Shown: in pieces, positions 15,701 to 43,078 of the stretch
Position numbering within the stretch: position 1 is the stretch's first letter
Layout: every line of letters begins with the position of its first letter
Source: Candidatus Woesearchaeota archaeon
GTDB lineage: Archaea; Nanobdellota; Nanobdellia; Woesearchaeales; GW2011-AR4
Assembly: GCA_016177615.1 (NCBI GenBank)
Contig: JACOUX010000006.1
Span: 30,131-94,130, forward strand
Length of the DNA: 64,000 bases
Reading direction: 5' to 3'
Notes under the pieces: model-generated
Seen by the model: the letters and a program-made list of their open reading frames with translations, nothing else
What the model was told of the DNA's origin: nothing
Databases searched by the model: none
Position numbers and translations under genes: made by a program

Positions 15701-16384
15701 ATTGATCTTCCTCCTACCTTAATCAACAGGTTCGACCTCATCTTTCCCATAAAGGACTTGCCTGAAGAGACAAGAGATGAGAAAATGGCAAAGCATATCC
15801 TTACCCTTCACCAAAGCCCTGAGGTAAATGAGCCTGAGGTATCAACAGAGCTCTTAAGAAAATATGTTGCTTATGCGAGGCAGAAAGTGTCCCCAAAGCT
15901 TACTGATGGCGCTCTTGAAGAGATAAAAGATTTCTATTTAAAGATGCGAAAAGGAGGAGGCGAAGGGGGTATAAGGTCTGTTCCTATATCTGCAAGGCAG
16001 CTGGAAGCACTAGTCAGGCTGAGCGAAGCTTCTGCAAAAGCAAGGCTGGACGACAGGGTTACCAGAAAGGATGCAAAAAAAGCCATAGAGCTTCTTGATT
16101 ACTGCCTTATGCAGGTCGGATTTGACAAAGAGACTGGAAAGGTGGATATTGACAGGATAGCCACTGGTGTTGGAGCGTCGCAAAGAAGCCACATAATGGT
16201 TTTAAGGGATATAATAATCGAGCTTGAGTCCAAGCTTGGAAAATCTGTTCCAATGGAAGATGTCATGGCAGAAGCAAAGAGCCGCGGCTTGGATGAGGAT
16301 AAGGTTGAAGAAGCCCTTGAGAGGCTGAAGCGCTCGGGAGATGTTTATGAGCCTAAGAGAGGCCATGTAAGCAAATTGCCTTAA
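12770..16384 (+). CDS. mcm: MCM replicative helicase containing one intein
   Basis: C4 zinc finger CPACGN...CGCG, Walker A GDPGSGKS, Walker B VCVDELDKM, arginine finger SARQLEALVRLSEA, C-terminal wH. Host sequence ...HESLENQ | TISISKANIQATL is interrupted by a 531-aa insertion. Confidence 0.9.
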   Translation: MEINVLEQIKRFQDFIDGNYYKSLLENARKGDRFLIIDFIELSKYDPDLATQLLDAPEETIKAVEKAIEQFDIEGISRFRIRFHNLPQGQHTKIRDIRSKHISRLVYVEGLIRQKSDVRPQVTSAKFECPACGNIINVLQLEGTFKEPARCGCGRKGKFVEIGKELVDAQGIVMEEVSENLEGGEQPKRISVLLTDDLVSPISEKRTAPGSKVGIIGIVKEVPIISRTGAKSTKFDLMIEANYVKPTQDTFYEVMVSDEEEKQILEIANDPRGYEKLINSIAPSIYGYEKIKEALLLQLMGGVRKVRADNVISRGDCHILLVGDPGSGKSALLKRITTFAPKGRYVSGKGISGAGITAAVVRDEFLKGWALEAGAMVLSSDGVVCVDELDKMSNEDRAAMHESLENQSYHYNTEIMLSDGSTFKIGKFVEELIDNNRDEVIFGKNCEILPVNNVELLTTDFEKIFPTKATMVSKHKAPDYFVKITYSNGRSIMVTPEHPVYVFYNGKISETPAEQVKQGLLAPAPRKLPTKSKNVEFIPSGLNHFNNKEIEFPSSLNNGLARLLGYITTEGYAYFSTQNRYAEVGISNTNPFIIDEMSLLFKETFKTTVNINVQFANSRSKAKKDIATVRICSKPFYNYIFSNFRGSANGAKNKYINNSLRCADKEFQLEFLRTAFKGDGFVDSRRFGYSTSSLELAKGYQDLLLQNNIGSRIDTEKRNSTEYYKVAITGTEGAGLFLNNIAEEDDHRIKRLSEFYNASKNKKNERDILPREILIEVNLLLKSFNLSDGYFINNINRGFNAHKDVVLGYIRKIEDKLKECDKAVQLNNPKKLRRLLNIEVNFLARNVNVSAGTIYNIEKKNNSARYHELVRTIKKLGNEKIQFTKSKVNYILKLINSEIRFLYVKKVEKIKNDGMEWVYDVTVEPTRTFISEGLVLHNTISISKANIQATLIARTTVLAAANPKFGRFDPYAIIADQIDLPPTLINRFDLIFPIKDLPEETRDEKMAKHILTLHQSPEVNEPEVSTELLRKYVAYARQKVSPKLTDGALEEIKDFYLKMRKGGGEGGIRSVPISARQLEALVRLSEASAKARLDDRVTRKDAKKAIELLDYCLMQVGFDKETGKVDIDRIATGVGASQRSHIMVLRDIIIELESKLGKSVPMEDVMAEAKSRGLDEDKVEEALERLKRSGDVYEPKRGHVSKLP
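13991..15583 (+). mobile_element. Intein (531 aa) with LAGLIDADG homing-endonuclease domain inside the MCM ATPase domain
   Basis: Insertion between Walker B and sensor 1. It begins with Ser (SYHYNTEIM...) and ends ...GLVLHN followed by +1 Thr. Two LAGLIDADG-like motifs (LARLLGYITTEGYAY and LEFLRTAFKGDGFVD). Confidence 0.8.
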
Positions 16385-18556: not shown

Positions 18557-21500
18557 CTACCCAAACCATCTCCCTAACCCTTCCTGCTTTTCCTTGTCCC
18601 TTCCGAAGACTCCTTCCACTCTATCTTTAGTCAAAAGCAAAGTCTGCTTCAGGTAAGGGGGCAGGTTGTACTTGTCGGACAGGGAAATCGCAGGCTCGAG
18701 ATATTTTATTATTGCCCCCTCTGTAACTGTGAATATGAGCTTGCTTCCGCATTCCAGGCATTTCCCGGCCAAAGGGGGCCTCCTGTATTTTTCAGTGCAC
18801 TTGCTGCACCTGAACTGCTGTTGGGAGAATTTCCTTAAGTTTCCTCTTATGTCCCTCAGCAAATGCTTTTCAATGACCAGCCTTGCAACATCGGCTGCGT
18901 CAACCGCCCTTATCTTGTCTGCAAGGTCCATCTGCCCCTTTAGCTTGTCTTCCATTGAAGGGATTGTCTTGTATGAAGAGCACTTTACTCCCATGTTTAT
19001 GCTGCTGACGGGATGGGTGTAGTAAATTGCAGACGCCTCTTTTGAGCCTAGAATGTTTGCAATCCTTTGTATCTTGACATTGTGCGGCATCTCATAATTC
19101 AAAGCCGCTTCATAAAATTCCAAAGGGTATCTTTTGACAACATCCACATCGAATGCCATGTCATCAACTTCTGTCGGAACCAAAATGGATGTTAAAACTA
19201 ATGGCGCGTCCTGTGTCGCACCTCTTGTGTCTGGAAGAAACTGCTTTGAGAAATTTAGCAATACGTCCATTAGTAATGTTACTGAAGCTTCGTCGCCATC
19301 ACAATCGCGCCTAGTAGCAGCATGAAGCAGCGGATGGGCATAAAATGCCTGTGTTTTTGAAAACCCGATTATTCTTCCTATTATTCCAGCTGATGTGTGC
19401 GGAGCAAGCGCGACTACCAATTCTCCAATAAGGTCTTTTTCGGATTTAAGGTTGTAGAATTTGCCAAGCTTGTACAAAGACCCCAGCAGCTCATCTATAA
19501 ACAGGCTGACTTCGTAAAGAACCTTGTCTGCGCCTTTCTCAGGAGCATCCTCGCATTTGGGTAGTATTATATCCTGAGGCATCAACTCAATGATTTGTTC
19601 CTCATCCTCCAATTGGTTGGAGTTTATATCCTCAGTATACCCAAGCTGCCTGAGTTTCTCTATAGAGGTCCCTATCTCTCTTGGCTTGAAATGTGTTATC
19701 GGCAGTTGCGTCATATCATACCTTGTTGTGCCGTCTTTATTGACTGGTATGCCATATTTTGCCCTCAGTATACCTTTAGCCAAATGCTCGGGAATATGGT
19801 TTTTATTTGATGTCCCTCTAACCCCTTTTACCAGATCTGGATAATGGCTCATGCCTAAGTTAGCCAATATTCTGTTGAAGTAGTGGTTAATGTCAATTTT
19901 TTGCAGTTTATAGGTTGTTGTTTTTCCGTGAATGCATTTTTCATTTCTTATCGTGCCGCAAACCTTGCACAGGTGCATCTGTACGGACTTGGAATTGCAT
20001 TTCTCGCAGACAGGCATGATTGTTGGCTCCTTGCAGCTTTCGCAGAAATAAATCGGAAATTCTGCTGTTACGCCCCCAATTCCGAGGGCGCTTTGAAAAG
20101 ACCTTAGCTTGCCCCCTTCTTTGCCTACTGGAAAGAGCATATGAGGATCACCTTCCATTTTCCTGACTTTTCCTTTTTCGGGCCTGCCCATTCTTGCACC
20201 TATGAATGTGCCTGATTTGTCTCTTATCTTAATCTCAGATGACATATTTATAATTTCAATTGTGTTTTCGTTTATAACGCTTGCATATTTTTCATAAAAT
20301 TCTTCATTATCCAGGCTTAGAAGGGCATAGAATACCTCTGCTTCATTTTTCTCCAAAATAGTGAATTCATTATTCACATAGATATGCGGTGCACCTATAG
20401 ATTCCAGTACTTTCTTGGCTTTCTCGTTTTTTGGAAGAATTATTTTGCTTAGCTTGCTGTTTTCAAACTCCATCTTTGCATGCTTAAACCATGACAAAAT
20501 CTCAAGCAGCGATTCTCTTGAAATAATTTTCCAGTGGTAGGTATGAAATGGGTGGAGGGGGACACTTAAAATTCTGCTTAACGCTGCCGACTCGTATCCG
20601 TTGGGCTTTGAAATAAAATAATCCTGAATGAACGACTTTAGGTTTTCAACTGGAATTCCGCTCAGTTCAGATAATTTGCCAAAGTCATTGTTGAATAACT
20701 CCTTTATCGCCTGCTCTGCTTCAAGCGCCCACCATTCCTCACAATAGCCTGCAGGCACCAACTGATGCGCCCTGTTAAAAAAATCACCGTAATTTATCAA
20801 TATATCTCCCAAAAATATTATTTCGCTGATTTGGCTGGCTGACTGCTTTGCGATTTGTTCGCTGTGCACATATATAACACTCCCATCATTTAATTTGACT
20901 ATTGGACCCTCTAAGCAATCACATACTGTTATCGCTGTTGCTTTCCCGGGCCTTTCCACTTTCAGCTGGGTGCCTATCCCAAGGTATTTGTTTAGCACAT
21001 ACATAGTCGCAGGATGTATTGATGTAGCAGAATATCCTGACGTTCTGCATCTGCCGTACCTTAATCTGAACCCTCCAGTTGCAGAAGGGTGCCCCAAAAC
21101 CGGGCGTCCTGCAACCAGATCCTGAATGTATGTGTAAATCGGGGTTATTCCTTTCTTTGATGCCTTTTCTTTCGCTTTTATTTCCTTTTGCAGATGCACA
21201 AATTCCTGCAGAAAAGACCAGTGGCCAAGCTCAAACTCGTCTCCCCATTTTTTAAGCTGCGACCATACTTTGGGTGCCTTTTGCGCAATGCACTCCCCCA
21301 AAACAAGCGCGGGCCCGCTTCTTATCCTATTTGTAGCAATCCTATCTAGGTCTTTGTAGTTAGATACCTCAATTTCTTCTGAAGGGTCTCCATCTATTTG
21401 GACAGGGAGGTTGCTTACCAAAAAGGATATTTCTTTTTCGCTTGGCAGGTATTGAAGGTTTGTAACCCTTTCGTGATAATCATACAGTTCTGTTACCATC

Positions 21501-22060
21501 CTCCTGATTTCCTGCTCTGACGGGTCATAAGCTTCAAACCCCATTTTTTTCCTGATATAGTCCGCTATAACTGCGCTGACTGCCCCAGCTGTCCCGCCAG
21601 CGCTTCGTATTGGGCCGGAGTACATCAGCGAGAAATAATCTTTGCCGTCCCTGCGCTTGTTGATTTTTAGTTCCACAAACCCCTCAAGCGGCGATGCCAC
21701 AACACCCAATGTCAAATATGCGAGACCAATCCTTATGCCAGTCTCCATAGCAATCTTCTGTGAATCGAATTTGCAGAATCTTTCCTGAGACACTTCCAGC
21801 GAAATTGAAAGTGCAACCCTCCAGTCCGATTTTCCGTAAATGGCTTCCAATTCTTTGATTCTTTCCGGAATCCCACTATTCATGAGTTGGGGCACAACAA
21901 CACTTACAATACCTTCCACTCTTTCTGCCATATTTTTTGCGAGAGGTGCGCATACTATCGGTTCAGGATCATACCCTTTGGACCTTGCTTCAGAGGCTAT
22001 GGCGTAGCATTTCTCAATTTCTTCCGCCATCTTCTTGCTGGATTTTTCGTTGGTAATCAT
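18557..22060 (-). CDS. polC: DNA polymerase II (PolD) large subunit DP2
   Basis: 1167 aa; DP2-typical Cys clusters (CESCKEPTIMPVCEKCNSK...CKVCG; C-terminal CSKCTEKYRRPPLAGKCLECGS); global similarity to archaeal DP2. Confidence 0.9.
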   Translation of the reverse strand: MITNEKSSKKMAEEIEKCYAIASEARSKGYDPEPIVCAPLAKNMAERVEGIVSVVVPQLMNSGIPERIKELEAIYGKSDWRVALSISLEVSQERFCKFDSQKIAMETGIRIGLAYLTLGVVASPLEGFVELKINKRRDGKDYFSLMYSGPIRSAGGTAGAVSAVIADYIRKKMGFEAYDPSEQEIRRMVTELYDYHERVTNLQYLPSEKEISFLVSNLPVQIDGDPSEEIEVSNYKDLDRIATNRIRSGPALVLGECIAQKAPKVWSQLKKWGDEFELGHWSFLQEFVHLQKEIKAKEKASKKGITPIYTYIQDLVAGRPVLGHPSATGGFRLRYGRCRTSGYSATSIHPATMYVLNKYLGIGTQLKVERPGKATAITVCDCLEGPIVKLNDGSVIYVHSEQIAKQSASQISEIIFLGDILINYGDFFNRAHQLVPAGYCEEWWALEAEQAIKELFNNDFGKLSELSGIPVENLKSFIQDYFISKPNGYESAALSRILSVPLHPFHTYHWKIISRESLLEILSWFKHAKMEFENSKLSKIILPKNEKAKKVLESIGAPHIYVNNEFTILEKNEAEVFYALLSLDNEEFYEKYASVINENTIEIINMSSEIKIRDKSGTFIGARMGRPEKGKVRKMEGDPHMLFPVGKEGGKLRSFQSALGIGGVTAEFPIYFCESCKEPTIMPVCEKCNSKSVQMHLCKVCGTIRNEKCIHGKTTTYKLQKIDINHYFNRILANLGMSHYPDLVKGVRGTSNKNHIPEHLAKGILRAKYGIPVNKDGTTRYDMTQLPITHFKPREIGTSIEKLRQLGYTEDINSNQLEDEEQIIELMPQDIILPKCEDAPEKGADKVLYEVSLFIDELLGSLYKLGKFYNLKSEKDLIGELVVALAPHTSAGIIGRIIGFSKTQAFYAHPLLHAATRRDCDGDEASVTLLMDVLLNFSKQFLPDTRGATQDAPLVLTSILVPTEVDDMAFDVDVVKRYPLEFYEAALNYEMPHNVKIQRIANILGSKEASAIYYTHPVSSINMGVKCSSYKTIPSMEDKLKGQMDLADKIRAVDAADVARLVIEKHLLRDIRGNLRKFSQQQFRCSKCTEKYRRPPLAGKCLECGSKLIFTVTEGAIIKYLEPAISLSDKYNLPPYLKQTLLLTKDRVEGVFGRDKEKQEGLGRWFG

Positions 22061-22066
22061 TCTGGT

Positions 22067-23551
22067 TTATTGCCCAAACTTAAGGATTTTTATGTCTCTT
22101 GTGCCAAGGTTCACTATTGGAACTCTGCTCGGCTCTGGATTGTGGCCAACCTTTTCCTGAAAAGTAGTTTTTCCTTGCCAACAGCTGCCGCAGATTAGTG
22201 TAGTGTTCCTGTAATTGGAAGTTGATGATTTGTGTATATGGCCGCTGAGAAAAAAGTCAGGGACTTTCTCTATCACTAAATTGTCTTTTTTTGTGTCTGG
22301 GATGTATAAAGATGATAAGTGAGAAGGGGCCAAATGCCTTCTTTTTAGAAGGAACTTCATGATGAGGTCAGGCCTGTTATAACCACCTAGACTTCTCAAT
22401 GAGTCTACATTTGCCACAAAATAATCAAAAGAATAGCCATGATACATCAATACATCAAAGCCCGAAAAGTTACTTGTTGAGTTTATGTTTATCATTGAGG
22501 GGTTTGATACCATTATAACATTGCTCATTTCGTGCAGTGGCTTTGCAAAGTCTTTGGATAATTGTGGCTGCGGCTCTGCTATTCTCAGAGCATCATGGTT
22601 TCCAGGGCAGATAATCAATGGTATTTGGTGGGGGATCTGCCTTAAAAGACCTGCGCATTCTTCGTATTGCTCATAAATGTCTTTTGTAATGAGCTCTTTC
22701 TCTTGACCGGGGTACACCCCGCACCCATCAACTAAGTCTCCTGCAATAAAGATGTATTGGATTTTATTCGATATGCTTCTTTGCTGTTCGTTTCCCATCT
22801 TCCCGTTTATCCATTTCAAAAACCTTTCAAAATCTTCAGGCAAAAATTTTGAAGATCCAACGTGCAAGTCTGAGAGGAATATAGCATAAGATTCCTCCTC
22901 GTGCTTCTTGAGCTCCTTGCTCGCTGGTATGTCTGGCCACAGTATGTTATTGGCAAAAATAAAATTCTCTATGTTTACACCAACCACTCCTACAACCTCG
23001 TCCAGCACAATGTCTTTGGCCTCGTTGAAAAGCGCCGGCTTGTTTTTGTTTACTAGGACCTTTCTTTGACCTGTTGGGTCTTCCAAAAGCAAGAGGAGAT
23101 TTCCATTTTTTGTTGTTTGCTTGTAGCTGACCATTCCAATCACAGAAAGGGGCTCTTTTTCCCTTTTGTTTGGAATTTTCCCTATTGAAACCGTATTTTG
23201 CATCTCTTGCCTTTGCTTCAATATTTTTTCGATCGCTTTGTACCTGTTGTTGAAGTGGTCCACAAAATCCTGGATGTCCCTTTTCTTTGGCTCTTCTTTG
23301 TAAGAATAAACAATTTTTATTTCCCCTTGCTTTGGGGCTTCTGCCATTTCTGGCGATTTTGTGCATGTTAATTCTGTTAAACTGAAGTCCGCTACCGGAT
23401 CGTTAAGCTGTTTCGTCCTGATAACCTCAAAAATTCTGGATATCTTGTCATAGTCATTAATTCCCCTCAAAAAGTCAGGGCTTATGAGAATTCCTTTCTT
23501 TAAGCACGCTTCTATTACTTCCCGCTTTTTGTCTATAAGTTCCTGCTGCAT
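22067..23551 (-). CDS. polB: DNA polymerase II (PolD) small subunit DP1 (calcineurin-like phosphoesterase)
   Basis: Phosphoesterase motifs (IFLSDLHVGS, FIAGDLVDG, GNHD, GHIH). Start trimmed to the Met that avoids overlap with cdc6 (track ORF extends to 23647). Confidence 0.85.
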   Translation of the reverse strand: MQQELIDKKREVIEACLKKGILISPDFLRGINDYDKISRIFEVIRTKQLNDPVADFSLTELTCTKSPEMAEAPKQGEIKIVYSYKEEPKKRDIQDFVDHFNNRYKAIEKILKQRQEMQNTVSIGKIPNKREKEPLSVIGMVSYKQTTKNGNLLLLLEDPTGQRKVLVNKNKPALFNEAKDIVLDEVVGVVGVNIENFIFANNILWPDIPASKELKKHEEESYAIFLSDLHVGSSKFLPEDFERFLKWINGKMGNEQQRSISNKIQYIFIAGDLVDGCGVYPGQEKELITKDIYEQYEECAGLLRQIPHQIPLIICPGNHDALRIAEPQPQLSKDFAKPLHEMSNVIMVSNPSMININSTSNFSGFDVLMYHGYSFDYFVANVDSLRSLGGYNRPDLIMKFLLKRRHLAPSHLSSLYIPDTKKDNLVIEKVPDFFLSGHIHKSSTSNYRNTTLICGSCWQGKTTFQEKVGHNPEPSRVPIVNLGTRDIKILKFGQ

Positions 23552-23558
23552 GTCCCAA

Positions 23559-24764
23559 TTAAATATGAATGCTGTCTTCAAGAATGCTCTTGGTTTTTTG
23601 GAGTGTTGCTTCTGGGATTTCCAGGGATATCTCTCTTGTTCTGCCATACCTCCCTTTGGAAATCACTTTGGCATTTACTACCCCCATCATATCAAACTCG
23701 GATATAATATCTGAAACCCTTCTTTGTGTCAATGTGCTTATGTTTATCTTGCTGCACAGGGATTTGTAAACCCCATATACCTCCCCGGTGAACAGCGATT
23801 CCCTGCCGCGCTGCAAGGAGATTATGGAATAAAGCACAACCTGATATTGTTTTGGCTGAGTTGTTGCTATATCCATTATCCTGTCTCGATCTATCTTTTC
23901 CTCTGCTTCATCTATGTCTTCCAGAGTTATTGTTTTTGTGTTTTTCCTGTCTGCAACTTCCCCTGCAACCCTTAGAAGCTCCATGGCGCGCCTTGCATCC
24001 CCGTGGTCGCGAGCTGCGTAAGCCGCGCATTTCTCAATTACCCCCTGCCCCAAAACCCCTTTATTAAATGCGAATTCCGCTCTTTGCTTTAAAATGGATT
24101 GAATTTGGAGCGCGTTGTATGGAGGAAAAACAATTTCTTCTTCTGATAATGATGATCTGACCCTAGGATCGAGCCCATCAACAAACATTATGTCATTAGA
24201 TATCCCAATCAAAGAGATTTGTGATGTTGTGTCTTCTTCACTAATCCGTGTTAGGTTGTAAAGCGCATTGTCTCCCATCTTGTTAATGAGTTGGTCTATC
24301 TCATCGAGTATTATCACGTAGTTTTGATTTTGCTTATTTAATGCCTTAAAGAATGATCTGTAAACTTCTTCTGTAGGCAAACCTGTTGGGGGGATTTCCT
24401 TGCCGAGTTCCCTCGCAAGCTGCGCTATGAGCCTGTATTCTGTATCGGCGCTTCTCTTTAGCTTGCAATTGACATAAATTACCTTCAAAGGCAACTTCTC
24501 TTTTTCTGCTACGCTAGCCAGTTTTTGAGTGGTGTGTTTTACCGTAAGGGTTTTTCCTGTGCCTGTTTTGCCATAGACAAAGGTGTTTGAGGTTTTGTCC
24601 CCTTTTAAAGATGGTGCAAGGACATTGGCTACTTGTTTTATCTGGATTTCCCTATGTAAGACCGTTTCTGGAATATAGGATGCTTGAAGTGCCTTTTTAT
24701 CAGAAAAAACGCTCTTTTTCCTTAAAAAATCTTCAAAGAAGGTTTCTGTGTCCTTTTCTACCAT
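23559..24764 (-). CDS. cdc6: Orc1/Cdc6 replication initiator
   Basis: AAA+ Walker A GKTGTGKT, Walker B ILDEID, C-terminal wH; lies directly next to the ORB-containing AT-rich region. Confidence 0.9.
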   Translation of the reverse strand: MVEKDTETFFEDFLRKKSVFSDKKALQASYIPETVLHREIQIKQVANVLAPSLKGDKTSNTFVYGKTGTGKTLTVKHTTQKLASVAEKEKLPLKVIYVNCKLKRSADTEYRLIAQLARELGKEIPPTGLPTEEVYRSFFKALNKQNQNYVIILDEIDQLINKMGDNALYNLTRISEEDTTSQISLIGISNDIMFVDGLDPRVRSSLSEEEIVFPPYNALQIQSILKQRAEFAFNKGVLGQGVIEKCAAYAARDHGDARRAMELLRVAGEVADRKNTKTITLEDIDEAEEKIDRDRIMDIATTQPKQYQVVLYSIISLQRGRESLFTGEVYGVYKSLCSKINISTLTQRRVSDIISEFDMMGVVNAKVISKGRYGRTREISLEIPEATLQKTKSILEDSIHI

Positions 24765-28166: not shown

Positions 28167-28230
28167 TTCTGTAAGTGCCTAATCAGTTTAAGAAAATTAA
28201 AAGTGGAGATTATTCCCCTATGATAATAAA

Positions 28231-28372
28231 GTGGACAGCTTTTCTGTTTTCCCGTGCGGAGCACAGTACACACAGAAACGGAGGCTTGCTTAACTTCCGT
28301 GAACCCGCTAAAATGCGGACGCACTTTACTTTCGGGATGGGAACGGGTGAACCAAGCCCCTATGGCCGTCCA
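28231..28372 (-). rRNA. rrf: 5S ribosomal RNA (stand-alone gene), apparently with a ~29-nt hairpin insertion in loop C
   Basis: Minus strand reads UUGGACGGCCAUAGGGGCUUGGUUCACCCGUUCCCAUCCCGAA[AGUAAAGUGCGUCCGCAUUUUAGCGGGUU]CACGGAAGUUAAGCAAGCCUCCGUUUCUG...GUACUGUGCUCCGCACGGGAAAACAGAAAAGCUGUCCAC. This aligns with archaeal 5S (e.g. GGCGGCCAUAGCGGUGGGGUUACUCCCGUACCCAUCCCGAACACGGAAGAUAAGCCCACC...). Helix I (GGACGGCC/GGCUGUCC) and helix II (GGGGCUUG/CAAGCCUC) are complementary. GC-rich relative to surrounding intergenic DNA. Confidence 0.75.
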
Positions 28373-28476
28373 AGCTAAAAGGGAAGAAAACCCGGTTTAA
28401 AAATGTTGTGGAATTTTTTTGTTTTGCCTGAAAAGATTTTTAAAGCGAAGCTTATAATTTGCTCTTGGTGATTTAA

Positions 28477-35282: not shown

Positions 35283-36449
35283 ATGGAAAAAAAAGCCCAG
35301 AGCGGGATGAACGCTGCCATACTAGTGGCAATCATCGCAGGGCTTATCGTCCTTTACATAGTTTTTCTGCCGACTTCCGAGCGCGAGCGCCTGGTTTTGG
35401 ATAAGGGTGAAGAAGATGGAGCTGAAACCCAATCCAATCTTTTGCTTGACGTGTTCCCAGGGACGCTCAGCATTTCAAAAGGACTTGAGAACGAAAAGCC
35501 AATCCCAAACCTATTCCTGATTGAGACAACGAATGCAATGGAATTTGAGACAATCAATCCTTTTATAATAAGGAACGGGTGGTTTGACAAGAAATCAAAG
35601 TCTTTTGACTTTTCACTTGATGATCCTTCCAATGTTGATAATGTAATCCTTTCATTCACGACAAAAAAGAGGCAAGGCATACTTACTATACGGCTAAATA
35701 ATGAAGTGGTATTCGAAAATGAGTTTGCAAGCGACATAGTTGCCCCTGTAAGGCTTAGCAAAAGGCTCCTGGACAAGGCCAACACGCTGCAGTTCAGCGT
35801 TTCATCAGTAGGGGCAAGGTTCTGGGCAACCAATGAATATGAATTCGAAAATGCGAAGATAATAGGCGACATAACCGATACAAGCAGGCAGGAAAGCTCT
35901 AATGTGTTTGTCATCAGCGATTCAGAATACCAAAATATGGAAAAGGCAGAATTGAAGTTTAACCCGTACTGCGGCAATGTACGCGACTTGGGGGCTTTGA
36001 ACATACTTATAAACAACAAGAAATTAGTGTCTTCAGTTCCCAAGTGCGACGACCCTTACAACCAGCCAATTCCAAAATCCGTGCTTAATTCAGGAGAAAA
36101 CAACATAGTATTCAAGACAGACAAGGGAAGCTACGGCATCGAGCAGATAAGAGTGACATTGGATTTCAAAGGAGCTGCTGTCAAGACTTATTATTTTGAG
36201 ATAAAGACAGATGATTTCCAGAGCATCAGGAGCAATTCGAGGAAAGTCATGCTCATGGTCAAGTTTGCAGACGGGAAAACCCTTAAGAGGGCAAAGCTTG
36301 ATGTCAACAGCAGGATAGAAACAATAGAAACAGACAAAATGCTGTTTTCAAAGGACATAACAGGCAAAATTTCAGAAGGAAACAACTTTGTAAGGCTCGA
36401 GCCGCTTGAAGACATAGAAGTCGTAGAGCTGAAAGTTGAGCTGGCATAA
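35283..36449 (+). CDS. N-terminally anchored extracellular protein with pilin-like (class III signal-peptide-like) N-terminus
   Basis: MEKKAQSGMNAAILVAIIAGLIVLYIVFL resembles archaeal prepilin signals (KxQxS...hydrophobic), though the usual +5 Glu is absent; the rest is beta-rich. Confidence 0.45.
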   Translation: MEKKAQSGMNAAILVAIIAGLIVLYIVFLPTSERERLVLDKGEEDGAETQSNLLLDVFPGTLSISKGLENEKPIPNLFLIETTNAMEFETINPFIIRNGWFDKKSKSFDFSLDDPSNVDNVILSFTTKKRQGILTIRLNNEVVFENEFASDIVAPVRLSKRLLDKANTLQFSVSSVGARFWATNEYEFENAKIIGDITDTSRQESSNVFVISDSEYQNMEKAELKFNPYCGNVRDLGALNILINNKKLVSSVPKCDDPYNQPIPKSVLNSGENNIVFKTDKGSYGIEQIRVTLDFKGAAVKTYYFEIKTDDFQSIRSNSRKVMLMVKFADGKTLKRAKLDVNSRIETIETDKMLFSKDITGKISEGNNFVRLEPLEDIEVVELKVELA

Positions 36450-36510
36450 TTCATTTCCCTTTCAATTGCTTAAAAACAAGAGGTGGCTAGGAAGAGTTCT
36501 CTATTAAGGT

Positions 36511-39500
36511 ATGACAGACGATAAATTGCCGTTTAAGGTGGTGGATAAAAGAAGAAGAGAGCCAGAGGAAGGTGGCAAGCAGTTGTTTAAGGTTACAGAT
36601 AGGAGAAGTCTAGAGGCACAGAATGCGGCAGCAGAAATGCAAAGAAGAGCAACAACAACTGCTCCGAAGAATGATAATCCGCCTTTCAAAGTTATAGACA
36701 GGAGAAACGAAGAAAGCCAGAGAATAGCTGAAGAAATGCGAAGGGAAAGGGAGCAACAGGCTGCCCAAGCCAAAAGCGCGGCAAGCGAAGCTGCCAGAGG
36801 AAGGCGAATGAATTTAAGGGCTTCTTGGCAGGCTATGAGAAATAACATGCTAATAGCAAAACAGAACCGTGCTTCTGAAAAGCAAGCTGCCAAGAAACAA
36901 GCCCAAAAGACTCCTGAGCAGGAGCCAGAAGATCAGGGACAGGCTAAAGGCAGGGGAAGCGGACTAATAAATCCCATTCAAATCAATATGCCAGGGGGTG
37001 GTTTGCTGAAGTTTCTTTTGAGAATATTAATATTTTTTGCATTGGTGGTAGCCTTTGTGATTTTTTTTGGCCAAGGAATAACGATCAATACATCATTTAT
37101 AATAAAATCAGTTATTGCATTGATGTTTTTTGGGTTTGTCCTTGCAGGTTTATTTCTCAATAAAGAGGGGGATATCGCTCCTTTTTTTATTTCTGTTGCC
37201 TTGATTATTACATTCATAGACATGTTGCCAGAGTTTTTTTCTGGATATGGAAGCTATTACACCGGATTTGCATTTGATTCACAGGGCCTTTTAAACACAA
37301 ACTGGTCGGCAGTTATTGCTTCAAGCCTTGTCTTTTTGCTTTTGCTCTTGGGGATGTTTAAAACTATCCTAAAAAGAAGCATAGTGGGTTTTCTTATCAT
37401 AGCCTCACTTATACTTATAATCTTCAATAAATACATGAATTATTACACAACAACAATCAGCAAACCTTACCTAAACTACTACATTGCTGGAATAGTGGTT
37501 GCTTTTTTAGTCATATACTTGCTGATTAAGCATAAGATTGAGGGCTCCGAGCTTGAAGAAAAAATAACTTACGTCTTCATGGCTTTGGTTTTTTCCTTCT
37601 TTTGGGTCAATATTGGATGGAAAGATGATACAAAGGCATTAATCCATATGATCTACATTTTGATTTATGGTTTTGTTTATATAAGGTCATATGCGGAAAG
37701 CCCTAGCGAATGGCATATACTAATCCCCGTTTTTATTATACTTGATTTCTTTGGTTATGGCATTATCTATAATTATGTTTACACAGCCGGCAATCTTGAT
37801 AAAGTTCTGCATATTCCGATCTTGCTTTTCCTGGTAAACCTCTATTGCCTAAAAAGGTCAAAGAGCCCATATCCTACATTTGTTATGATGTTTATAGCAG
37901 TTATTATCTTATTTTCAGGCGTTAATCTAATTGTATTCGCAGCCGGCGAAGGTTCATATACCTTTCAAAAGCAGGCTATTCAGGGTGTAGAGGGATTTTG
38001 GGAAAGGATTGCTGGAGGCATAGAAAGATTCACCCAGCAGGGGCTTGATTATGCAACAGGAGGATATTACAGCAGCACTGTTGAGCAGAACCAGTATGAA
38101 AGCCTTGGGGTTTACTTTTCAAATGTAAGGGGCGCAGACCCAAAATTCTACACAGACCAGCCAGTAACAATCTGGGGAACCATCAAAAGCAAGACGTATA
38201 AGGATCCTGTCTTGGTAAGCTTCAACTGCCAACTGGAGGGGCCCCAGAAGCAGACACCCATTGATCCAACCAGCCACTATCCTAACCAAGAGTTTCCTGT
38301 ATTTACATTTGACCAGATTGATACAGAATGCACATTTGACCCAAAAATCACAGGAGAGCTGCCTGCAGGCGCCAACAAGGCAAAATTAAGCGCAGATTAC
38401 AATTTCGGCACAGACGCTTATATCAAAACATATTTTATTGACAGAAGCAGGCTGATAGCAAGCAGCAGGGAAGACATAGATATATTGGCTCAATATGGAA
38501 TTCAGGATAATGACCCTATTGCAGTTTTTACAAACGGGCCTGTGGCAATCGGCATAGAAAGAGTTCCTTTGGTTCCTGTAGGCGCAACTGATTATCCAGT
38601 CAAGCCAGCCATAGGAATTAGCCTGAGCAATAGAGGACAAATTACAGATAAAAATGAGAACGTCTATTCAAGATGGGAAGGAAGAATAAACAAAGTGACA
38701 GAGCTTGTTTTATTGACTCCGCCGGGAGTAACTCTTGCGAAAGATGCTAACAATAATTATATATGCAGCACGCCTTTTAAGGATTACACAGCATTAAATT
38801 GTATCGCCTCTTGTAAAGACAATGTTGGTGATCCATGCAAGTATTTATGCTCCAAGATTTACACTTTCAATGCACTTACAGACTGTACTACAGAGTGCAC
38901 CAATAGCCTTATGAACTGTGAAGGCGAATGTGGAAGTATTTTCACAGGCGACGGCCTGCAGGGAAAATATAATGGATACCAGGCAGACATAGAGTTTCTT
39001 AATAAAAACAAACTGAACGAAAATATAGAAAAGAGCCTAAGGGTGCAATGCCGCTATAACGCAGATGAAAGCGTTCTGGACAAGACACCCATAACAACAA
39101 GGTATTTCAGGGTAAGGGCAAGATACAATTATTATCTTGAGAACAAGTTTAATGTCCCAATTGAAAAGAGGATAGAGGAAAGCTTATTGCCGCAGCCGGC
39201 TCCGGCAGAAACTTCCACGCCAGGATTCAGAACAGACTTACCCGAAGGTGTTTATAAAAATGCTTATTTTACAGCCGGGCAAAGAGAAGCAGATTATAGT
39301 GGTATTGTGTTTGAAGTTGCTAAGCAATATAATGTAGATTATCTTTTTGTAAAAGCAATAATACAACAAGAAAGTAGTTGGAATCCAAACGCAGTTGGAG
39401 ATGGAGGGAATTCATTTGGCCTTATGCAAGTTTCTAGAACCAACGCGCAGAAATTAGGATGCGGAGCCAATTTTGAAACTGACCCAAGAGCAAATATAGA

Positions 39501-39768
39501 ATGTGGCATAAAGTTAATAAGAGAATTAATGGATGTCCAACAAAAAAATAGCTGGAAACCCGGGTTAAGGAACATTGCTGGAGGCTACAACTGTGGTGAG
39601 CAGGCCATGAGGTACATCACTAGTCCAACCGGACAAATATCATATTGGGAAGGCCAAGGTAATTGTCCACACCGCGATCAAAAGGGGAACATCGTTTCCT
39701 ATACAAGAAATTATGTAGACATCATATGGAATAATTATCAAACCTTAAAAAACAAAATCCCGCAGTAG
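36511..39768 (+). CDS. Large polytopic membrane protein with extracellular Cys-rich region and C-terminal lytic transglycosylase (SLT/GH23) domain
   Basis: N-terminal cytoplasmic triple repeat (LPFKVVDKRRRE / QLFKVTDRRSLE / PPFKVIDRRNEE), ~12 TM helices (aa ~170-480), a Cys-cluster region (CIASCKDNVGDPCKYLCSK...CTTECTNSLMNCEGECGS), and a C-terminal domain VAKQYNVDYLFVKAIIQQESSWNPNAVGDGGNSFGLMQV that fits the SLT catalytic motif (E-S...GLMQ). Confidence 0.7.
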   Translation: MTDDKLPFKVVDKRRREPEEGGKQLFKVTDRRSLEAQNAAAEMQRRATTTAPKNDNPPFKVIDRRNEESQRIAEEMRREREQQAAQAKSAASEAARGRRMNLRASWQAMRNNMLIAKQNRASEKQAAKKQAQKTPEQEPEDQGQAKGRGSGLINPIQINMPGGGLLKFLLRILIFFALVVAFVIFFGQGITINTSFIIKSVIALMFFGFVLAGLFLNKEGDIAPFFISVALIITFIDMLPEFFSGYGSYYTGFAFDSQGLLNTNWSAVIASSLVFLLLLLGMFKTILKRSIVGFLIIASLILIIFNKYMNYYTTTISKPYLNYYIAGIVVAFLVIYLLIKHKIEGSELEEKITYVFMALVFSFFWVNIGWKDDTKALIHMIYILIYGFVYIRSYAESPSEWHILIPVFIILDFFGYGIIYNYVYTAGNLDKVLHIPILLFLVNLYCLKRSKSPYPTFVMMFIAVIILFSGVNLIVFAAGEGSYTFQKQAIQGVEGFWERIAGGIERFTQQGLDYATGGYYSSTVEQNQYESLGVYFSNVRGADPKFYTDQPVTIWGTIKSKTYKDPVLVSFNCQLEGPQKQTPIDPTSHYPNQEFPVFTFDQIDTECTFDPKITGELPAGANKAKLSADYNFGTDAYIKTYFIDRSRLIASSREDIDILAQYGIQDNDPIAVFTNGPVAIGIERVPLVPVGATDYPVKPAIGISLSNRGQITDKNENVYSRWEGRINKVTELVLLTPPGVTLAKDANNNYICSTPFKDYTALNCIASCKDNVGDPCKYLCSKIYTFNALTDCTTECTNSLMNCEGECGSIFTGDGLQGKYNGYQADIEFLNKNKLNENIEKSLRVQCRYNADESVLDKTPITTRYFRVRARYNYYLENKFNVPIEKRIEESLLPQPAPAETSTPGFRTDLPEGVYKNAYFTAGQREADYSGIVFEVAKQYNVDYLFVKAIIQQESSWNPNAVGDGGNSFGLMQVSRTNAQKLGCGANFETDPRANIECGIKLIRELMDVQQKNSWKPGLRNIAGGYNCGEQAMRYITSPTGQISYWEGQGNCPHRDQKGNIVSYTRNYVDIIWNNYQTLKNKIPQ

Positions 39769-39777
39769 GCAGGAGCC

Positions 39778-40824
39778 ATGAAAAATATGGAACAAAGGTT
39801 TTTAGCATCGATCACATGTTTATTAATATTCCTCTCAGCCTGCACTCTAACCTCATCCGGCGCATCAGAGCAAAATTTCCGCACAGGAAATACCGGCCTT
39901 GCTTTGGAATTATTGAAAAACACCCCTCCTCCAAGGATGTTTGAAGGCGACACATTTCCTGTTGTTATAAGGGTGGCAAACACAGGAGCCTTTGATATTC
40001 CTCCGGAAGGGGCAGTCCTGTCGCTTGGAGTGGAAAAGGACTATACAAAGGAAGTCAGCCTTTTGTACAAACAAGATCATCTTACGCCGGATACTGCAAA
40101 TGATTTTTCAGGATTTTTTGGAATAAAAGGAAAGAGCATGTTGAGCCCAAGAGGGGAAGAAGAAGTCTTTAGCTATAATGTGATAGCAGGAAAACTGGAT
40201 CCCCAAAGCGAGCAGCACATCTCAACAATCACAGCATCTGTATGCTATCCTTATGAGACAATTCTTGACACGACAATATGCATAGACACAGACGTCAATA
40301 GCCTAAGGCCCGGTAAAAAGGTATGCAGCAACCAGGACATTATATTCGGGAATGGCCAGGGAGCGCCTGTTGCAATAACAAAGATAGAGCCAAAAATGCT
40401 TCCGATACAGGCATTCGGCAATGTAGAGTCTTCTGACAAGATAAAGCCGCAGTTCCTGATTTATGTCGAGGATTTTGGAGGAGGAGTTGTGATAAAAAAG
40501 GAATCACTTAAAAAATCATGCATAGGGGAACAGGACAGACCATTTGACCATAATGATTTTGGAATAGTATATGTTAAGGTAGAACTTTCAGGAAAAGAGC
40601 TCCACTGCCAGCTGGAAAAGAAGGAGCGCGACCCCGGGCCTGGGCACATCAAGCTTCAGGACAAGAAAGACATAATAAGATGCAATACAGAGAATAATAA
40701 AGAATACTTGACTGTCATAGACAGGAGCCAGGATTCCTATTTTGCCCCGCTAAGAATCACATTGGAATACGGATACACTAAATCCATATCCGCAAGCTAC
40801 ACAATACAAAAGCCAGTCAGCTGA
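39778..40824 (+). CDS. Lipoprotein, paralog A of a tandem triplet
   Basis: Signal peptide with lipobox FLSAC. Shared motifs NTGAFDIPPEG...CYPYETILDTTICIDTDVNS...KKVCSNQDIIFGNGQGAPVAITKIE. Confidence 0.6.
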   Translation: MKNMEQRFLASITCLLIFLSACTLTSSGASEQNFRTGNTGLALELLKNTPPPRMFEGDTFPVVIRVANTGAFDIPPEGAVLSLGVEKDYTKEVSLLYKQDHLTPDTANDFSGFFGIKGKSMLSPRGEEEVFSYNVIAGKLDPQSEQHISTITASVCYPYETILDTTICIDTDVNSLRPGKKVCSNQDIIFGNGQGAPVAITKIEPKMLPIQAFGNVESSDKIKPQFLIYVEDFGGGVVIKKESLKKSCIGEQDRPFDHNDFGIVYVKVELSGKELHCQLEKKERDPGPGHIKLQDKKDIIRCNTENNKEYLTVIDRSQDSYFAPLRITLEYGYTKSISASYTIQKPVS

Positions 40825-40890
40825 GTTATTCACTAAACCTTTAATCCTTATCAAAAGTTTTAAATATCATATCCCCAATTTTGCATAATT

Positions 40891-41970
40891 ATGGCTAAGC
40901 CGCATAAATTCTTGATAGCTGGGTTTTTATTATTTTTATTGTTGTTTATTTCATATGGCTGCGGCAGCAAGTCCAGCGGGAAAAAATCCCTTGAAGAAAT
41001 AAGGTCAGGCACAACTGGAGTAAATTTGGCTTTCCTTCCGAATAACCCCCCGTCAACAATACATGCAGAGCAGGCTTCAAACACATTTGATGTTGCCATT
41101 GAAGTGCAGAATACCGGCGCATTTCCGCAGCCTGAAGATCTAATGGATAAGAAGCTCGAAGGCAGGATTTATTTAAGCGGCTTTGATACAAGCATAATCA
41201 GCTTTAATACAATTGATCTGAAAGGGCAGTCTTCACAGAAATTTTATGCTTTTGAGAATCATGAGCCAGAACTGCACGGCAAAAGCAACATCAATCCAAA
41301 CGGAGGCTCTGATATTGCCTCATTCAAGGGAACCATAGACATGGGCAAGCTAAATGTAGAGAGTTATGAGCCGTCAATTTTGGCAACAGCATGCTATAAA
41401 TACTACACAATAGCAGGCCCTTCTGTATGCATTGATCCTGACCCTTATTCCACAATGAAGCAAAAAAAAGTTTGCGAAATCCGAAGCACGACTTTGACAG
41501 GCCAGGGAGCACCAATATCAGTAATACAAGTCGATGAAGACGCCACTGCAGACAAAACACAGTTCAAGATAACCATTAGAAATGCAGGCAATGGCGATGT
41601 TTTCTGGCCCGGCCAAAAAGGTGAAGAAGAGCCGCAAACATCAAACGCCATTGGAAAGTGCAACCCATCTGCCGACAATAAGAACAAGGTTGGAAGAGAT
41701 GATATTGGCAGGGTGCATCTTGACAAGGCCATTATAGGAGACTTGCAATTGGTATGCTGGCCTTTTGCACAGGAGAATGTAAGGTCAGAGAACGGAGGCA
41801 TAATAAGGCTTCTTGAAGGCGAAGGCTCAATATTCTGCGAGCTTAAAAAGGATAAATACAAGGGAGGAAACACAGCTTATACCACTCCATTAAGGATTGA
41901 GCTAAGCTACTTTTACAGGACATCCGCAGAGCGAAAGGTGCTGATAAAGAAAGAAATGCCAAGCCCATAA
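40891..41970 (+). CDS. Lipoprotein, paralog B
   Basis: Lipobox ISYGC. Motifs NTGAFPQPED...CYKYYTIAGPSVCIDPDPYS...KKVCEIRSTTLTGQGAPISVIQVD are collinear with paralog A. Confidence 0.6.
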   Translation: MAKPHKFLIAGFLLFLLLFISYGCGSKSSGKKSLEEIRSGTTGVNLAFLPNNPPSTIHAEQASNTFDVAIEVQNTGAFPQPEDLMDKKLEGRIYLSGFDTSIISFNTIDLKGQSSQKFYAFENHEPELHGKSNINPNGGSDIASFKGTIDMGKLNVESYEPSILATACYKYYTIAGPSVCIDPDPYSTMKQKKVCEIRSTTLTGQGAPISVIQVDEDATADKTQFKITIRNAGNGDVFWPGQKGEEEPQTSNAIGKCNPSADNKNKVGRDDIGRVHLDKAIIGDLQLVCWPFAQENVRSENGGIIRLLEGEGSIFCELKKDKYKGGNTAYTTPLRIELSYFYRTSAERKVLIKKEMPSP

Positions 41971-42046
41971 AACAAAAACAGAAAACTTTATATAATCGAA
42001 AAAAAATTTCAATTTGATTGAAATTTTTTATAATTAAAGAGGCAAA

Positions 42047-43078
42047 ATGAATAAGAGGTTTTATGCGATTGCATTGCTTGTAATTCTTGTTCTTCTAATG
42101 GCCGCATGCAAGAAAAGCGGAGCATCAACTGGTAGCGCCCCAAGGACGCCGTTTATAGGCGGAACAGCAGGGGTGACAATCAACTTTGAAAAGGATTCAC
42201 CGCCTCCGGAAGTGACAGATGACGAGTCTTTCGCATTTAACGCGATTGTAAGGCTTAAAAATGACGGGGAGCACACTGTAAACAAAAATGACATGAGAAT
42301 AAACATGGTCGGCTTTGACCCAGCTGATTTTGGCAAGGACTTTATTGACATGAAGGATGTGCAGCCTCAGGACGATTTGCTGGCCAAAAGAAGAGACTCT
42401 GAAGGCAACCTGATAGAGGGAACAACCACCTTCGCAACATTTCCAAGAAGCGGAGACTCATTTATCCCAAAAAAATTCAGCGGCAACCTTGAGTTCACAT
42501 TCAGGGCAGACACATGCTATAACTACATGACCGAGGCTAACACAAAGCTATGTATTTTAAGGGACATGATTAATATCAGGGATGACAGCATCTGCAGGCC
42601 AAGCGGAACAGGCACCTCAGGCAGGCCAATATACAGCTCGTCAGGTCCTGTGCAAATCACAAATTTCAGGCAAAGCGTGATAGGAAGAGACAAAATATCT
42701 TTCAGCTTTGACATTGTGTTAAGCGGCAATGTGGACATTTTCTGGAGCAGGGACAAAAGAACGCCGTCAAGCGGGTTTGATGCAGCATGCCCAAGAGACC
42801 CAAGGCTTAGAAGGGAAATCGAAAATAATGTGGGAATAGAAATCACAGAAATAGCAGGAGACCCAATAATAACCGATTTAAGGTGCGGCGGCCTTGAAAG
42901 CGACTCAGTCGGAACAGTCAAGCTGGTCAACGGCAAGAGAACCATAACCTGCACAGCTGATTTGCTGCAGGACAGGCTTGACTTGGAAAAGGCAGTCGGC
43001 ATATTGTTAACCTATAATGTCTTGGACAATAAAGAAACAAAAGTTCTGATAAAGCACTTGGCTTCTACAAACCCGTAA
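42047..43078 (+). CDS. Lipoprotein, paralog C (more divergent)
   Basis: Lipobox LMAAC. CYNYMTEANTKLCILRDMIN...SGTGTSGRPIYSSSGPVQITNF is collinear with A and B. Confidence 0.55.
   Translation: MNKRFYAIALLVILVLLMAACKKSGASTGSAPRTPFIGGTAGVTINFEKDSPPPEVTDDESFAFNAIVRLKNDGEHTVNKNDMRINMVGFDPADFGKDFIDMKDVQPQDDLLAKRRDSEGNLIEGTTTFATFPRSGDSFIPKKFSGNLEFTFRADTCYNYMTEANTKLCILRDMINIRDDSICRPSGTGTSGRPIYSSSGPVQITNFRQSVIGRDKISFSFDIVLSGNVDIFWSRDKRTPSSGFDAACPRDPRLRREIENNVGIEITEIAGDPIITDLRCGGLESDSVGTVKLVNGKRTITCTADLLQDRLDLEKAVGILLTYNVLDNKETKVLIKHLASTNP

Follow-up and report, generated by a model that had tools for sequence, protein, structure and literature searches.

Woesearchaeota, which belong to the DPANN archaea, and their relatives account for a large share of archaeal diversity, and none is in pure culture. 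Two reports interpret large Woesearchaeal membrane proteins carrying an SLT/GH23 domain as proteins that degrade murein outside the cell and serve contact with bacteria (2021, PMC8204110; Vigneron et al. 2022, PMC9723730), and the large SLT protein is singled out there as a clue to bacterial hosts. Here, we describe the setting of one such protein, g2, in a 64,000-nucleotide stretch of a Candidatus Woesearchaeota genome (GenBank assembly GCA_016177615.1, contig JACOUX010000006.1, positions 30,131 to 94,130 of the forward strand), which we refer to as the window. Like the published proteins, g2 is a large membrane protein with a C-terminal SLT/GH23 domain, and it is a 100% match to a Woesearchaeota 'transglycosylase SLT domain-containing protein'. 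Those proteins are described singly in the parts of the reports available, without a five-gene module, lipoproteins, hydrolase exchange or avoidance of N-glycosylation sequons, whereas we place g2 within a fixed five-gene module, g1-g2-A-B-C, in which A, B and C are paralogs with predicted lipid anchors. Our literature search found no description of the lipoprotein family, the fixed five-gene module, the swapping of hydrolases or the avoidance of glycans. We put at roughly 55% the probability that A, B and C are non-enzymatic beta-sandwich proteins, anchored by lipid and stabilised by disulfides, which serve as subunits of a surface module of five proteins that often displays a murein hydrolase to bacteria.

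Three paralogous lipoproteins in a five-gene module

Lipoproteins A (39778..40824, 348 amino acids), B (40891..41970, 359 amino acids) and C (42047..43078, 343 amino acids) are encoded by consecutive open reading frames (ORFs) on the forward strand, with exactly the boundaries given by a first-pass annotation of this DNA. That annotation also proposed a signal sequence and lipobox at each N-terminus, and in each protein a hydrophobic stretch is indeed followed by a lipobox cysteine (LSAC22 in A, the atypical SYGC24 in B and MAAC21 in C); each has six further cysteines. The trio lies, as described, right after the SLT membrane protein, since A starts 9 nucleotides beyond the stop codon of the 1,085-amino-acid g2 (36511..39768, forward strand). 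A is a 100% match to NCBI HYS31_00700 of Candidatus Woesearchaeota, annotated as 'hypothetical protein'. The three proteins align over their full length, with 34% identity between A and B, 23% between A and C, and 43 invariant columns in the three-protein alignment; hence, they are paralogs, as had been claimed, and not merely proteins with similar signal peptides. When the family profile was run against a six-frame translation of the window, the A, B and C ORFs were the only matches (E 1e-82 to 1e-109). The shared core motif of the first-pass annotation needs amendment: a cysteine bracket exists in all three proteins, but its spacing is C-x11-C rather than C-x3-C. The bracket reads C-x11-C-I-D-x-D in A (C156/C168) and B (C168/C180), and C-x11-C-I-L-R-D in C. 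Likewise, the 'KVC' and 'GQGAP' elements are exact in A and B only, with 'SIC' and 'SSGP' in C.

The family to which these proteins belong is large. A word-seeded search with 90% clustering gave 338 matches, and an exhaustive search gave 2,605 clusters at 50% identity with E<=1e-3 (2,078 with E<=1e-10). The earlier remark that no family could be named held up in profile searches: A, B and C had no match in Pfam, NCBIfam, PHROGs, PADLOC or PDB sequences, and the source names that we saw for family members were all 'hypothetical protein', from metagenome-assembled genomes of Woesearchaeota, Nanoarchaeota or Nanoarchaeia. Among members with an N-terminal hydrophobic segment, 322 of 361 (89%) have a canonical lipobox, most commonly VSAC, ISGC, LSAC or IAGC, which supports the proposed export and lipobox anchoring; orthologs of B have ISGC/VSGC/SGC-type boxes, and those of C mostly VSAC. 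We saw no twin-arginine motif in the family signal sequences, suggesting that export is Sec-type. Of 292 members of normal length, 279 have exactly six cysteines besides that of the lipobox, and three disulfides per exported protein are therefore presumed. Lipidation of the lipobox by thioether-linked archaeol is established in archaea, and AliA has been reported in DPANN (Hong et al. 2025, PMC12462473); A, B and C would, by their sequences, carry such an anchor on the lipobox cysteine. Ten longer members take two forms (P0235, P0241, P0323, P0353, P0252, P0266, P0240, P0259, P0262 and P0270): one has insertions of 100-200 amino acids in two loops, at fixed sites (~100 and ~230 in the profile), and the other has C-terminal extensions of ~330 amino acids without an assigned fold, P0270 having fn3 domains. 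The lipoprotein scaffold apparently tolerates, or displays, extra modules.

We examined orthologous loci from 39 GTDB species matches, together with contigs from an exact-protein look-up; the genome scan used orthologs of C only, such that the 39 species under-sample the family. In every locus with enough upstream sequence, distant genomes included, the order g1-g2-A-B-C is found between the genes for Pelota and RFC. These genes form a vertically inherited module, probably of the cell surface. Its first gene, g1 (35283..36449, forward strand), lies upstream of the SLT gene and had been left out of the first-pass annotation. It encodes a 388-amino-acid protein with one N-terminal membrane anchor (hydrophobic amino acids 11-29) and a large, beta-rich ectodomain with two cysteines, for which we found no Pfam, NCBIfam or PDB-sequence match. 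Orthologs of g1 are signal-anchored proteins of about 390 amino acids, and those of g2 are polytopic, with 700-1250 amino acids. A C ortholog stands outside the five-gene context in two genomes: L031 has two tandem copies (8160-9173 and 9191-10216), and the 8 kb upstream of them lack g1, g2, A and B; L038 has one (8989-10008), beside RFC.

A neighbour-joining tree of the position-1, -2 and -3 proteins from 15 genomes resolves into three clean clades by gene position (orthogroups to which A, B and C respectively belong), with A and B as sisters. These orthogroups hold in the distant genomes L005 and L006, at ~30% identity. Thus, the triplication is ancient and each copy has been retained, in agreement with the old tandem duplication inferred previously from the three sequences.

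The five proteins differ in their rates of change. Over 17 genomes, mean pairwise identity is 66% for g1, 36% for g2, 47% for A, 53% for B and 68% for C; for RFC, Pelota and TyrRS of the same genomes, the figures are 83%, 74% and 73%, given as identity to the window protein rather than as a pairwise mean. In conservation, C and g1 come close to housekeeping genes; A, B and g2 evolve fast. With a three-paralog profile, the first 119 matches consist entirely of C orthologs (66-85% identity); orthologs of B are 42-52% identical. The most conserved part of A and B is the central hairpin and cysteine segment (63-67%). The description of A and B as close and C as distant is therefore right for similarity among the paralogs and wrong across genomes, where C is the slowest-evolving of the three and no outlier. 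Similarly, A and B fit the proposed pattern of diversification, typical of proteins that recognise partners; C, which is near Pelota and TyrRS in conservation, does not.

Hydrolase exchange, fold and sequon avoidance

Hydropathy analysis and domain searches divide g2 into a charged N-terminal region (amino acids 1-165), about 10 transmembrane helices (168-475), a conserved beta-rich ectodomain holding a cysteine-rich helical insert (~505-885), and an SLT/GH23 lytic transglycosylase domain (934-1034, corresponding to nucleotides 39310-39612 on the forward strand). The last of these matches PF01464 with E 7e-17 and a score of 61.4 bits against a cut-off of 21.3, and so belongs to the SLT family. 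It has catalytic-type 'QQESS...GLMQ...YNCG' motifs, with E954 nearly invariant among orthologs having the domain, and its closest sequence relatives are of the MltC/EtgA/IagB type. Pfam and NCBIfam searches detected no SLT domain in A, B or C. Across 24 g2 orthologs, the C-terminal enzyme varies: SLT in 17, Phage_lysozyme2 in three, Glucosaminidase in three and Amidase_2 in one. In L027, a phage lysozyme stands where SLT stands elsewhere, and L033 has both SLT and an amidase. A recognisable hydrolase is missing from g2 of L005 and L006 (about 700 amino acids), L003, L025 and L036. Since the C-terminal enzyme is varied or missing, the hydrolase is an exchangeable add-on to a conserved g2 core. 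In the cytoplasmic N-terminus of the window g2, three copies of F-K-V-[VTI]-D-[KR]-R (amino acids 8-14, 26-32 and 59-65; nucleotides 36532-36705 for amino acids 8-65) lie within a charged low-complexity region that is not conserved in orthologs.

The AlphaFold2 model of C, built from a 123-sequence alignment of C and B orthologs, has a mean predicted local distance difference test score (pLDDT) of 93.1 and a pTM of 0.86. After the signal helix, it contains only beta structure, arranged as tandem beta-sandwiches with two very long hairpins, at residues 148-170 (bearing the C-x11-C bracket) and 313-336. When the model was compared with PDB and BFVD by Foldseek, the matches were all generic proteins with tandem beta-sandwiches, at query TM-scores (template modelling scores) <=0.23; they comprised integrin alpha legs, SdrG and other MSCRAMMs, transglutaminase C-terminal barrels, WxLIP and RbmA. 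The fold class of C is therefore 'cell-surface beta-sandwich'. Structure prediction had been suggested in the first-pass annotation as a way to tell a beta-sandwich adhesin from an enzyme, and it came down on the side of the beta-sandwich. Judged by its model, C is no substrate-binding protein and resembles no enzyme that we could recognise; it is without a close solved relative. We rejected an ATP-binding cassette (ABC) transporter substrate-binding protein because the model is all-beta, rather than having two alpha/beta lobes around a hinge; Pfam and NCBIfam searches of A, B and C found no substrate-binding protein family, and the statement that no ABC transporter is encoded nearby was upheld, with no permease or ATPase genes adjoining in the window or in orthologous loci. 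A class-II fusogen or viral glycoprotein-like fold was ruled out, as no such matches were found in PDB or BFVD. The family, being very large, unannotated and confidently modelled, is a candidate for domain databases.

The AlphaFold2 model of g2 has an overall pLDDT of 60, with 65-88 in the ectodomain. We considered whether g1 or the g2 ectodomain might be homologous to the lipoproteins. Neither profile-sequence nor profile-profile comparisons were significant: hhalign gave a score of 20.5 (E 0.09) for the g2 ectodomain against the lipoproteins, inside the range of block-shuffled controls (13-29). For the idea that the g2 ectodomain may be a fourth copy of the lipoprotein domain, there speak two pairs of collinear motifs, 'SAxYNFxTxAYxKxYFIDR' against 'ATACYxYxTxAxPxVCIDPD' and 'C...TPITTKYFRVRARYNY..V.VE' against 'C...YTTPLxIxLxYxY...I.IK', long hairpins at these spots in both the C model and the g2 model, and overlapping Foldseek lists; against it speak the hhalign score and the low overall confidence of the g2 model.

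A striking regularity emerged from counts of N-glycosylation sequons (N-x-S/T, where x is not P), for which we derived expectations from composition-preserving shuffles. A, B and C of 17 genomes (51 proteins) contain no sequon, against an expectation of about 2.5 each. The 374 members of the lipoprotein family that were counted have 35 sequons where 974 are expected, the g1 ectodomains seven (102 expected) and the g2 ectodomains 30 (130 expected); in the N-terminus and transmembrane region of g2, there are 44 vs 36 expected. Control motifs in the lipoprotein family are near expectation (S/T-x-N, 884 vs 979; Q-x-S/T, 490 vs 533; D-x-S/T, 1136 vs 1274), and N-x-A/G is in excess (1232 vs 884). 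Sequons in the cytoplasmic proteins of the window are at expectation. Two N-terminally hydrophobic proteins of 422 and 843 amino acids, encoded on the reverse strand at 7312-8580 and 8544-11075, have four and seven sequons against 4.1 and 8.7 expected; they have no Pfam match and may be ordinary glycosylated surface proteins.

We read these counts as a sign of strong selection that keeps exactly these five ectodomains unglycosylated. Sequon avoidance supports their predicted outside topology and a functional link between the five proteins, and it argues against a conventional, glycosylated surface-layer (S-layer) role; with zero sequons in 51 proteins, A, B and C do not look like archaeal S-layer glycoproteins, which form lattices, are abundant and as a rule are N-glycosylated at such sites. 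Possible reasons for avoiding glycans include tight packing on all sides, surfaces that bind glycans or cell walls, and entry into the murein mesh.

Promoters, spacers and neighbouring genes

A TATA-like motif with a putative transcription factor B recognition element (BRE) precedes B (40853..40866, forward strand, AAAAGTTTTAAATA), and AAAGTTTTATATA or a close variant occurs in nearly all orthologous A-B spacers. C has both a BRE and TATA box (41980..41994, forward strand, AGAAAAC TTTATATA) and a Shine-Dalgarno sequence (42036-42043, forward strand, AAAGAGGC). Of 23 distinct orthologous B-C spacers, 22 keep the BRE and TATA box of C, and the exception, L005, has a gap of just 13 nucleotides; the layout of these spacers is AGAAAAC-TTTATATA, then CCAACATTAAAATAA, then AAAGAGGCAAA directly before the ATG. 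A TATA-like motif is also found before g1. Given the 9-nucleotide gap, g2 and A are probably co-transcribed, and the TATA motifs before g1, B and C make g1, g2-A, B and C the likely transcription units, promoters and units being read here from sequence motifs. Separate expression of C through its own conserved promoter is plausible, and is consistent with C lying elsewhere in L038 or as a tandem pair in L031.

The first-pass annotation drew attention to a perfect 13-nucleotide palindrome between B and C that might allow differential expression. The inverted repeat exists (42001..42029; arms 42001-42013 and 42017-42029, AAAAAATTTCAAT-ttg-ATTGAAATTTTTT), and follows the TATA box of C but precedes its Shine-Dalgarno sequence, covering the site where transcription is expected to start. 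However, it is lineage-specific, being absent from all 23 distinct orthologous B-C spacers, in which CCAACATTAAAATAA stands instead; the idea of a conserved regulator thus fails.

A further element lies in the g1-g2 spacer (36479..36500, forward strand). The pattern AGAGGTG-N-GGAAGA(A/G)TTCT has one match in the window, with 0 expected, and GAGGTG-N3-8-GAAGA(A/G)TTCT occurs exactly once, on the forward strand between g1 and g2, in 22 loci (for example, 4306-4326 in L001 and 3279-3300 in L007), at varying distance from the g2 start. Its consensus is AAGAGGTGGCTTGGGAAGAATTCTTTAG, which contains the self-complementary AAGAATTCTT. Short upstream ORFs that begin at GTG or TTG of the element seem to reach as far as the start codon of g2 or to overlap it; in the window, such an ORF runs from GTG 36483 to TGA 36518, overlapping the g2 ATG at 36511. 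The element may be a translational leader or upstream-ORF region, or a protein-binding site. At the gathering threshold, Rfam found nothing in the whole window except a 5S rRNA (28230-28373, reverse strand).

The neighbouring genes in the window are archaeal housekeeping genes: those for Pelota, the RFC small subunit, TyrRS, an intein-containing MCM, PolD, Orc1/Cdc6 and primase. The MCM helicase gene (12770-16384, forward strand) is split by an intein with a LAGLIDADG endonuclease. The genes for PolD DP2, DP1 and Orc1/Cdc6 lie together at 18557-24764 (reverse strand), suggesting that a replication origin is probably nearby. A phage or defence origin of the cluster was also considered and rejected: we found no PHROG match for g1, A, B or C and no PADLOC match for g2, A, B or C (g1 had two weak PADLOC matches, E about 2e-3), and the position of the cluster in the core genome disfavours such an origin.

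Possible roles and comparison with known systems

To our knowledge, archaea are generally described as lacking murein, in which case the target of the g2 hydrolase would be foreign. We propose that A, B and C are exported by the Sec pathway and held by lipid to the outside of the cytoplasmic membrane of Woesearchaeota, where each would form tandem beta-sandwiches around a long, conserved hairpin bearing C-x11-C. The signal-anchored ectoprotein g1 and g2, with its 10 transmembrane helices and beta-rich ectodomain, would join them in one unit, all five ectodomains staying free of N-glycans. Within this unit, g1 and C would be the slowly evolving base, and g2, A and B the fast-evolving, outward-facing part; in the many lineages where g2 ends in a hydrolase, the module would present that enzyme to bacterial walls, allowing the archaeon to attach to bacteria or to feed on them. 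Engagement of bacterial cell walls is, in our view, a plausible role. A more specific form of this proposal, which we advance tentatively, is a glycan-free contact machine of Woesearchaeales that anchors to bacteria and breaches murein with an exchangeable head, A, B and g2 facing the partner and C and g1 forming an invariant base. If true, archaeon-on-bacterium episymbiosis or predation would have its first defined molecular apparatus. The module gives concrete targets for studying contact between DPANN archaea and bacteria.

Several observations weigh against a surface module that works on bacterial walls. The transmembrane domain of g2 resisted assignment, with no informative PDB match (seven homologs, model pLDDT 60), and none of the structural matches of the C model reveals a function. 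The module is kept where g2 is without a hydrolase, and so its core function cannot be peptidoglycan attack. C has its own promoter, is separated from g1, g2, A and B in at least two genomes, and may also act independently. Finally, the signs that the five proteins bind one another, namely gene order and shared sequon avoidance, are indirect.

The alternative that survives best, although we consider it unlikely, is that the module is a general envelope scaffold, such as an S-layer substitute or envelope spacer, that has nothing to do with bacteria and carries the hydrolase as an opportunistic passenger domain. Beta-sandwich domains are typical of archaeal surface-layer proteins. A scaffold would also suit the core-genome site amid Pelota, RFC, MCM, PolD and Orc1, the vertical inheritance and fixed order of the genes, the persistence of the module without any g2 hydrolase, the near-housekeeping conservation of C and g1, and the strong, conserved promoter and Shine-Dalgarno sequence ahead of C. 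However, it sits poorly with the near-complete sequon avoidance in five ectodomains, since N-glycosylation is characteristic of S-layer proteins, archaellins and pilins in archaea (PMC2952790). Moreover, four hydrolase types have been gained independently at the same C-terminal site of g2, which suggests a favoured platform for acting on murein, and A, B and g2 change much faster than would be expected of a purely structural lattice.

It is also conceivable, if improbable, that A, B and C are free-standing adhesins whose adjacency to g1 and g2 reflects shared regulation or history. The weak structural likeness to MSCRAMM adhesins, integrin legs, WxLIP and RbmA points in this direction, as do the separate promoters ahead of B and C, the position of C apart from the cluster in L031 and L038, and the tolerance of family members for long insertions in loops and for extensions at the C-terminus, one of them with fn3 domains. 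Against this, the structural matches are generic (TM-score <=0.23), extreme sequon avoidance is common to g1 and the g2 ectodomain but not to other exported proteins of the window, gene order and copy number are constant over deep divergence, and C is too conserved for a host-facing adhesin.

Uptake systems of archaea and Gram-positive bacteria usually have lipid-anchored binding proteins encoded alongside a polytopic membrane protein. The idea that the 10 helices of g2 form a transporter or channel to which A, B and C hand over ligands such as muropeptides or lipids would gain from a hydrolase that yields soluble wall fragments and from the dependence of DPANN on scavenged metabolites (PMC8204110), but it is the least probable of these explanations, since the C model lacks a two-lobe alpha/beta architecture, no ATPase or permease family was detected in g2 or neighbouring genes, the g2 transmembrane domain matches no transporter family, and three paralogs have been kept 1:1:1 for very long, unlike interchangeable binding proteins.

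Lipid-anchored surface proteins tied to a wall hydrolase are of a familiar kind, and the proposed five-protein surface module can be set beside several known systems. The family shares its signal peptide and [LVI][AST][GAS]C box with archaeal lipobox lipoproteins of the AliA/AliB pathway; the characterised examples are mostly haloarchaeal solute-binding proteins and halocyanins, whereas A, B and C have a different, beta-sandwich fold. In their two stacked beta-sandwiches, the models of C and the g2 ectodomain resemble MSCRAMMs (SdrG/CNA/ACE), the integrin alpha thigh and calf, enterococcal WxLIP and Vibrio RbmA, with Foldseek E-values of only 1e-3 to 5e-6, TM-scores <=0.23 and 5-11% identity, a likeness of fold class that is not evidence of homology. 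For the MSCRAMM or Ig-like adhesins SdrG, ClfB, SdrD and FnBPA against C, E-values are 3e-4 to 9e-3 and TM-scores <=0.16. MSCRAMM and WxL proteins are anchored by LPXTG or WxL, A, B and C instead by an N-terminal lipobox as predicted, and the C-x11-C hairpin core and six-cysteine pattern are specific to the A/B/C family, unlike MSCRAMMs, integrins, WxLIP and RbmA. In function only, an analogy can be drawn with BamA-BamBCDE and LptD-LptE, in which an integral membrane protein is likewise combined with several lipid-anchored subunits; there is no relation in sequence or fold, these archaea are single-membraned, and A, B and C are paralogs of one another. The closest sequence relatives of the g2 SLT domain are specialised lytic transglycosylases such as EtgA and IagB of type III secretion, MltC and the flagellar enzymes, which likewise attach a wall-cutting activity to a membrane-embedded multi-protein machine; they open the wall of their own bacterium, and their partner proteins are unrelated to those of the g1-g2-A-B-C module.

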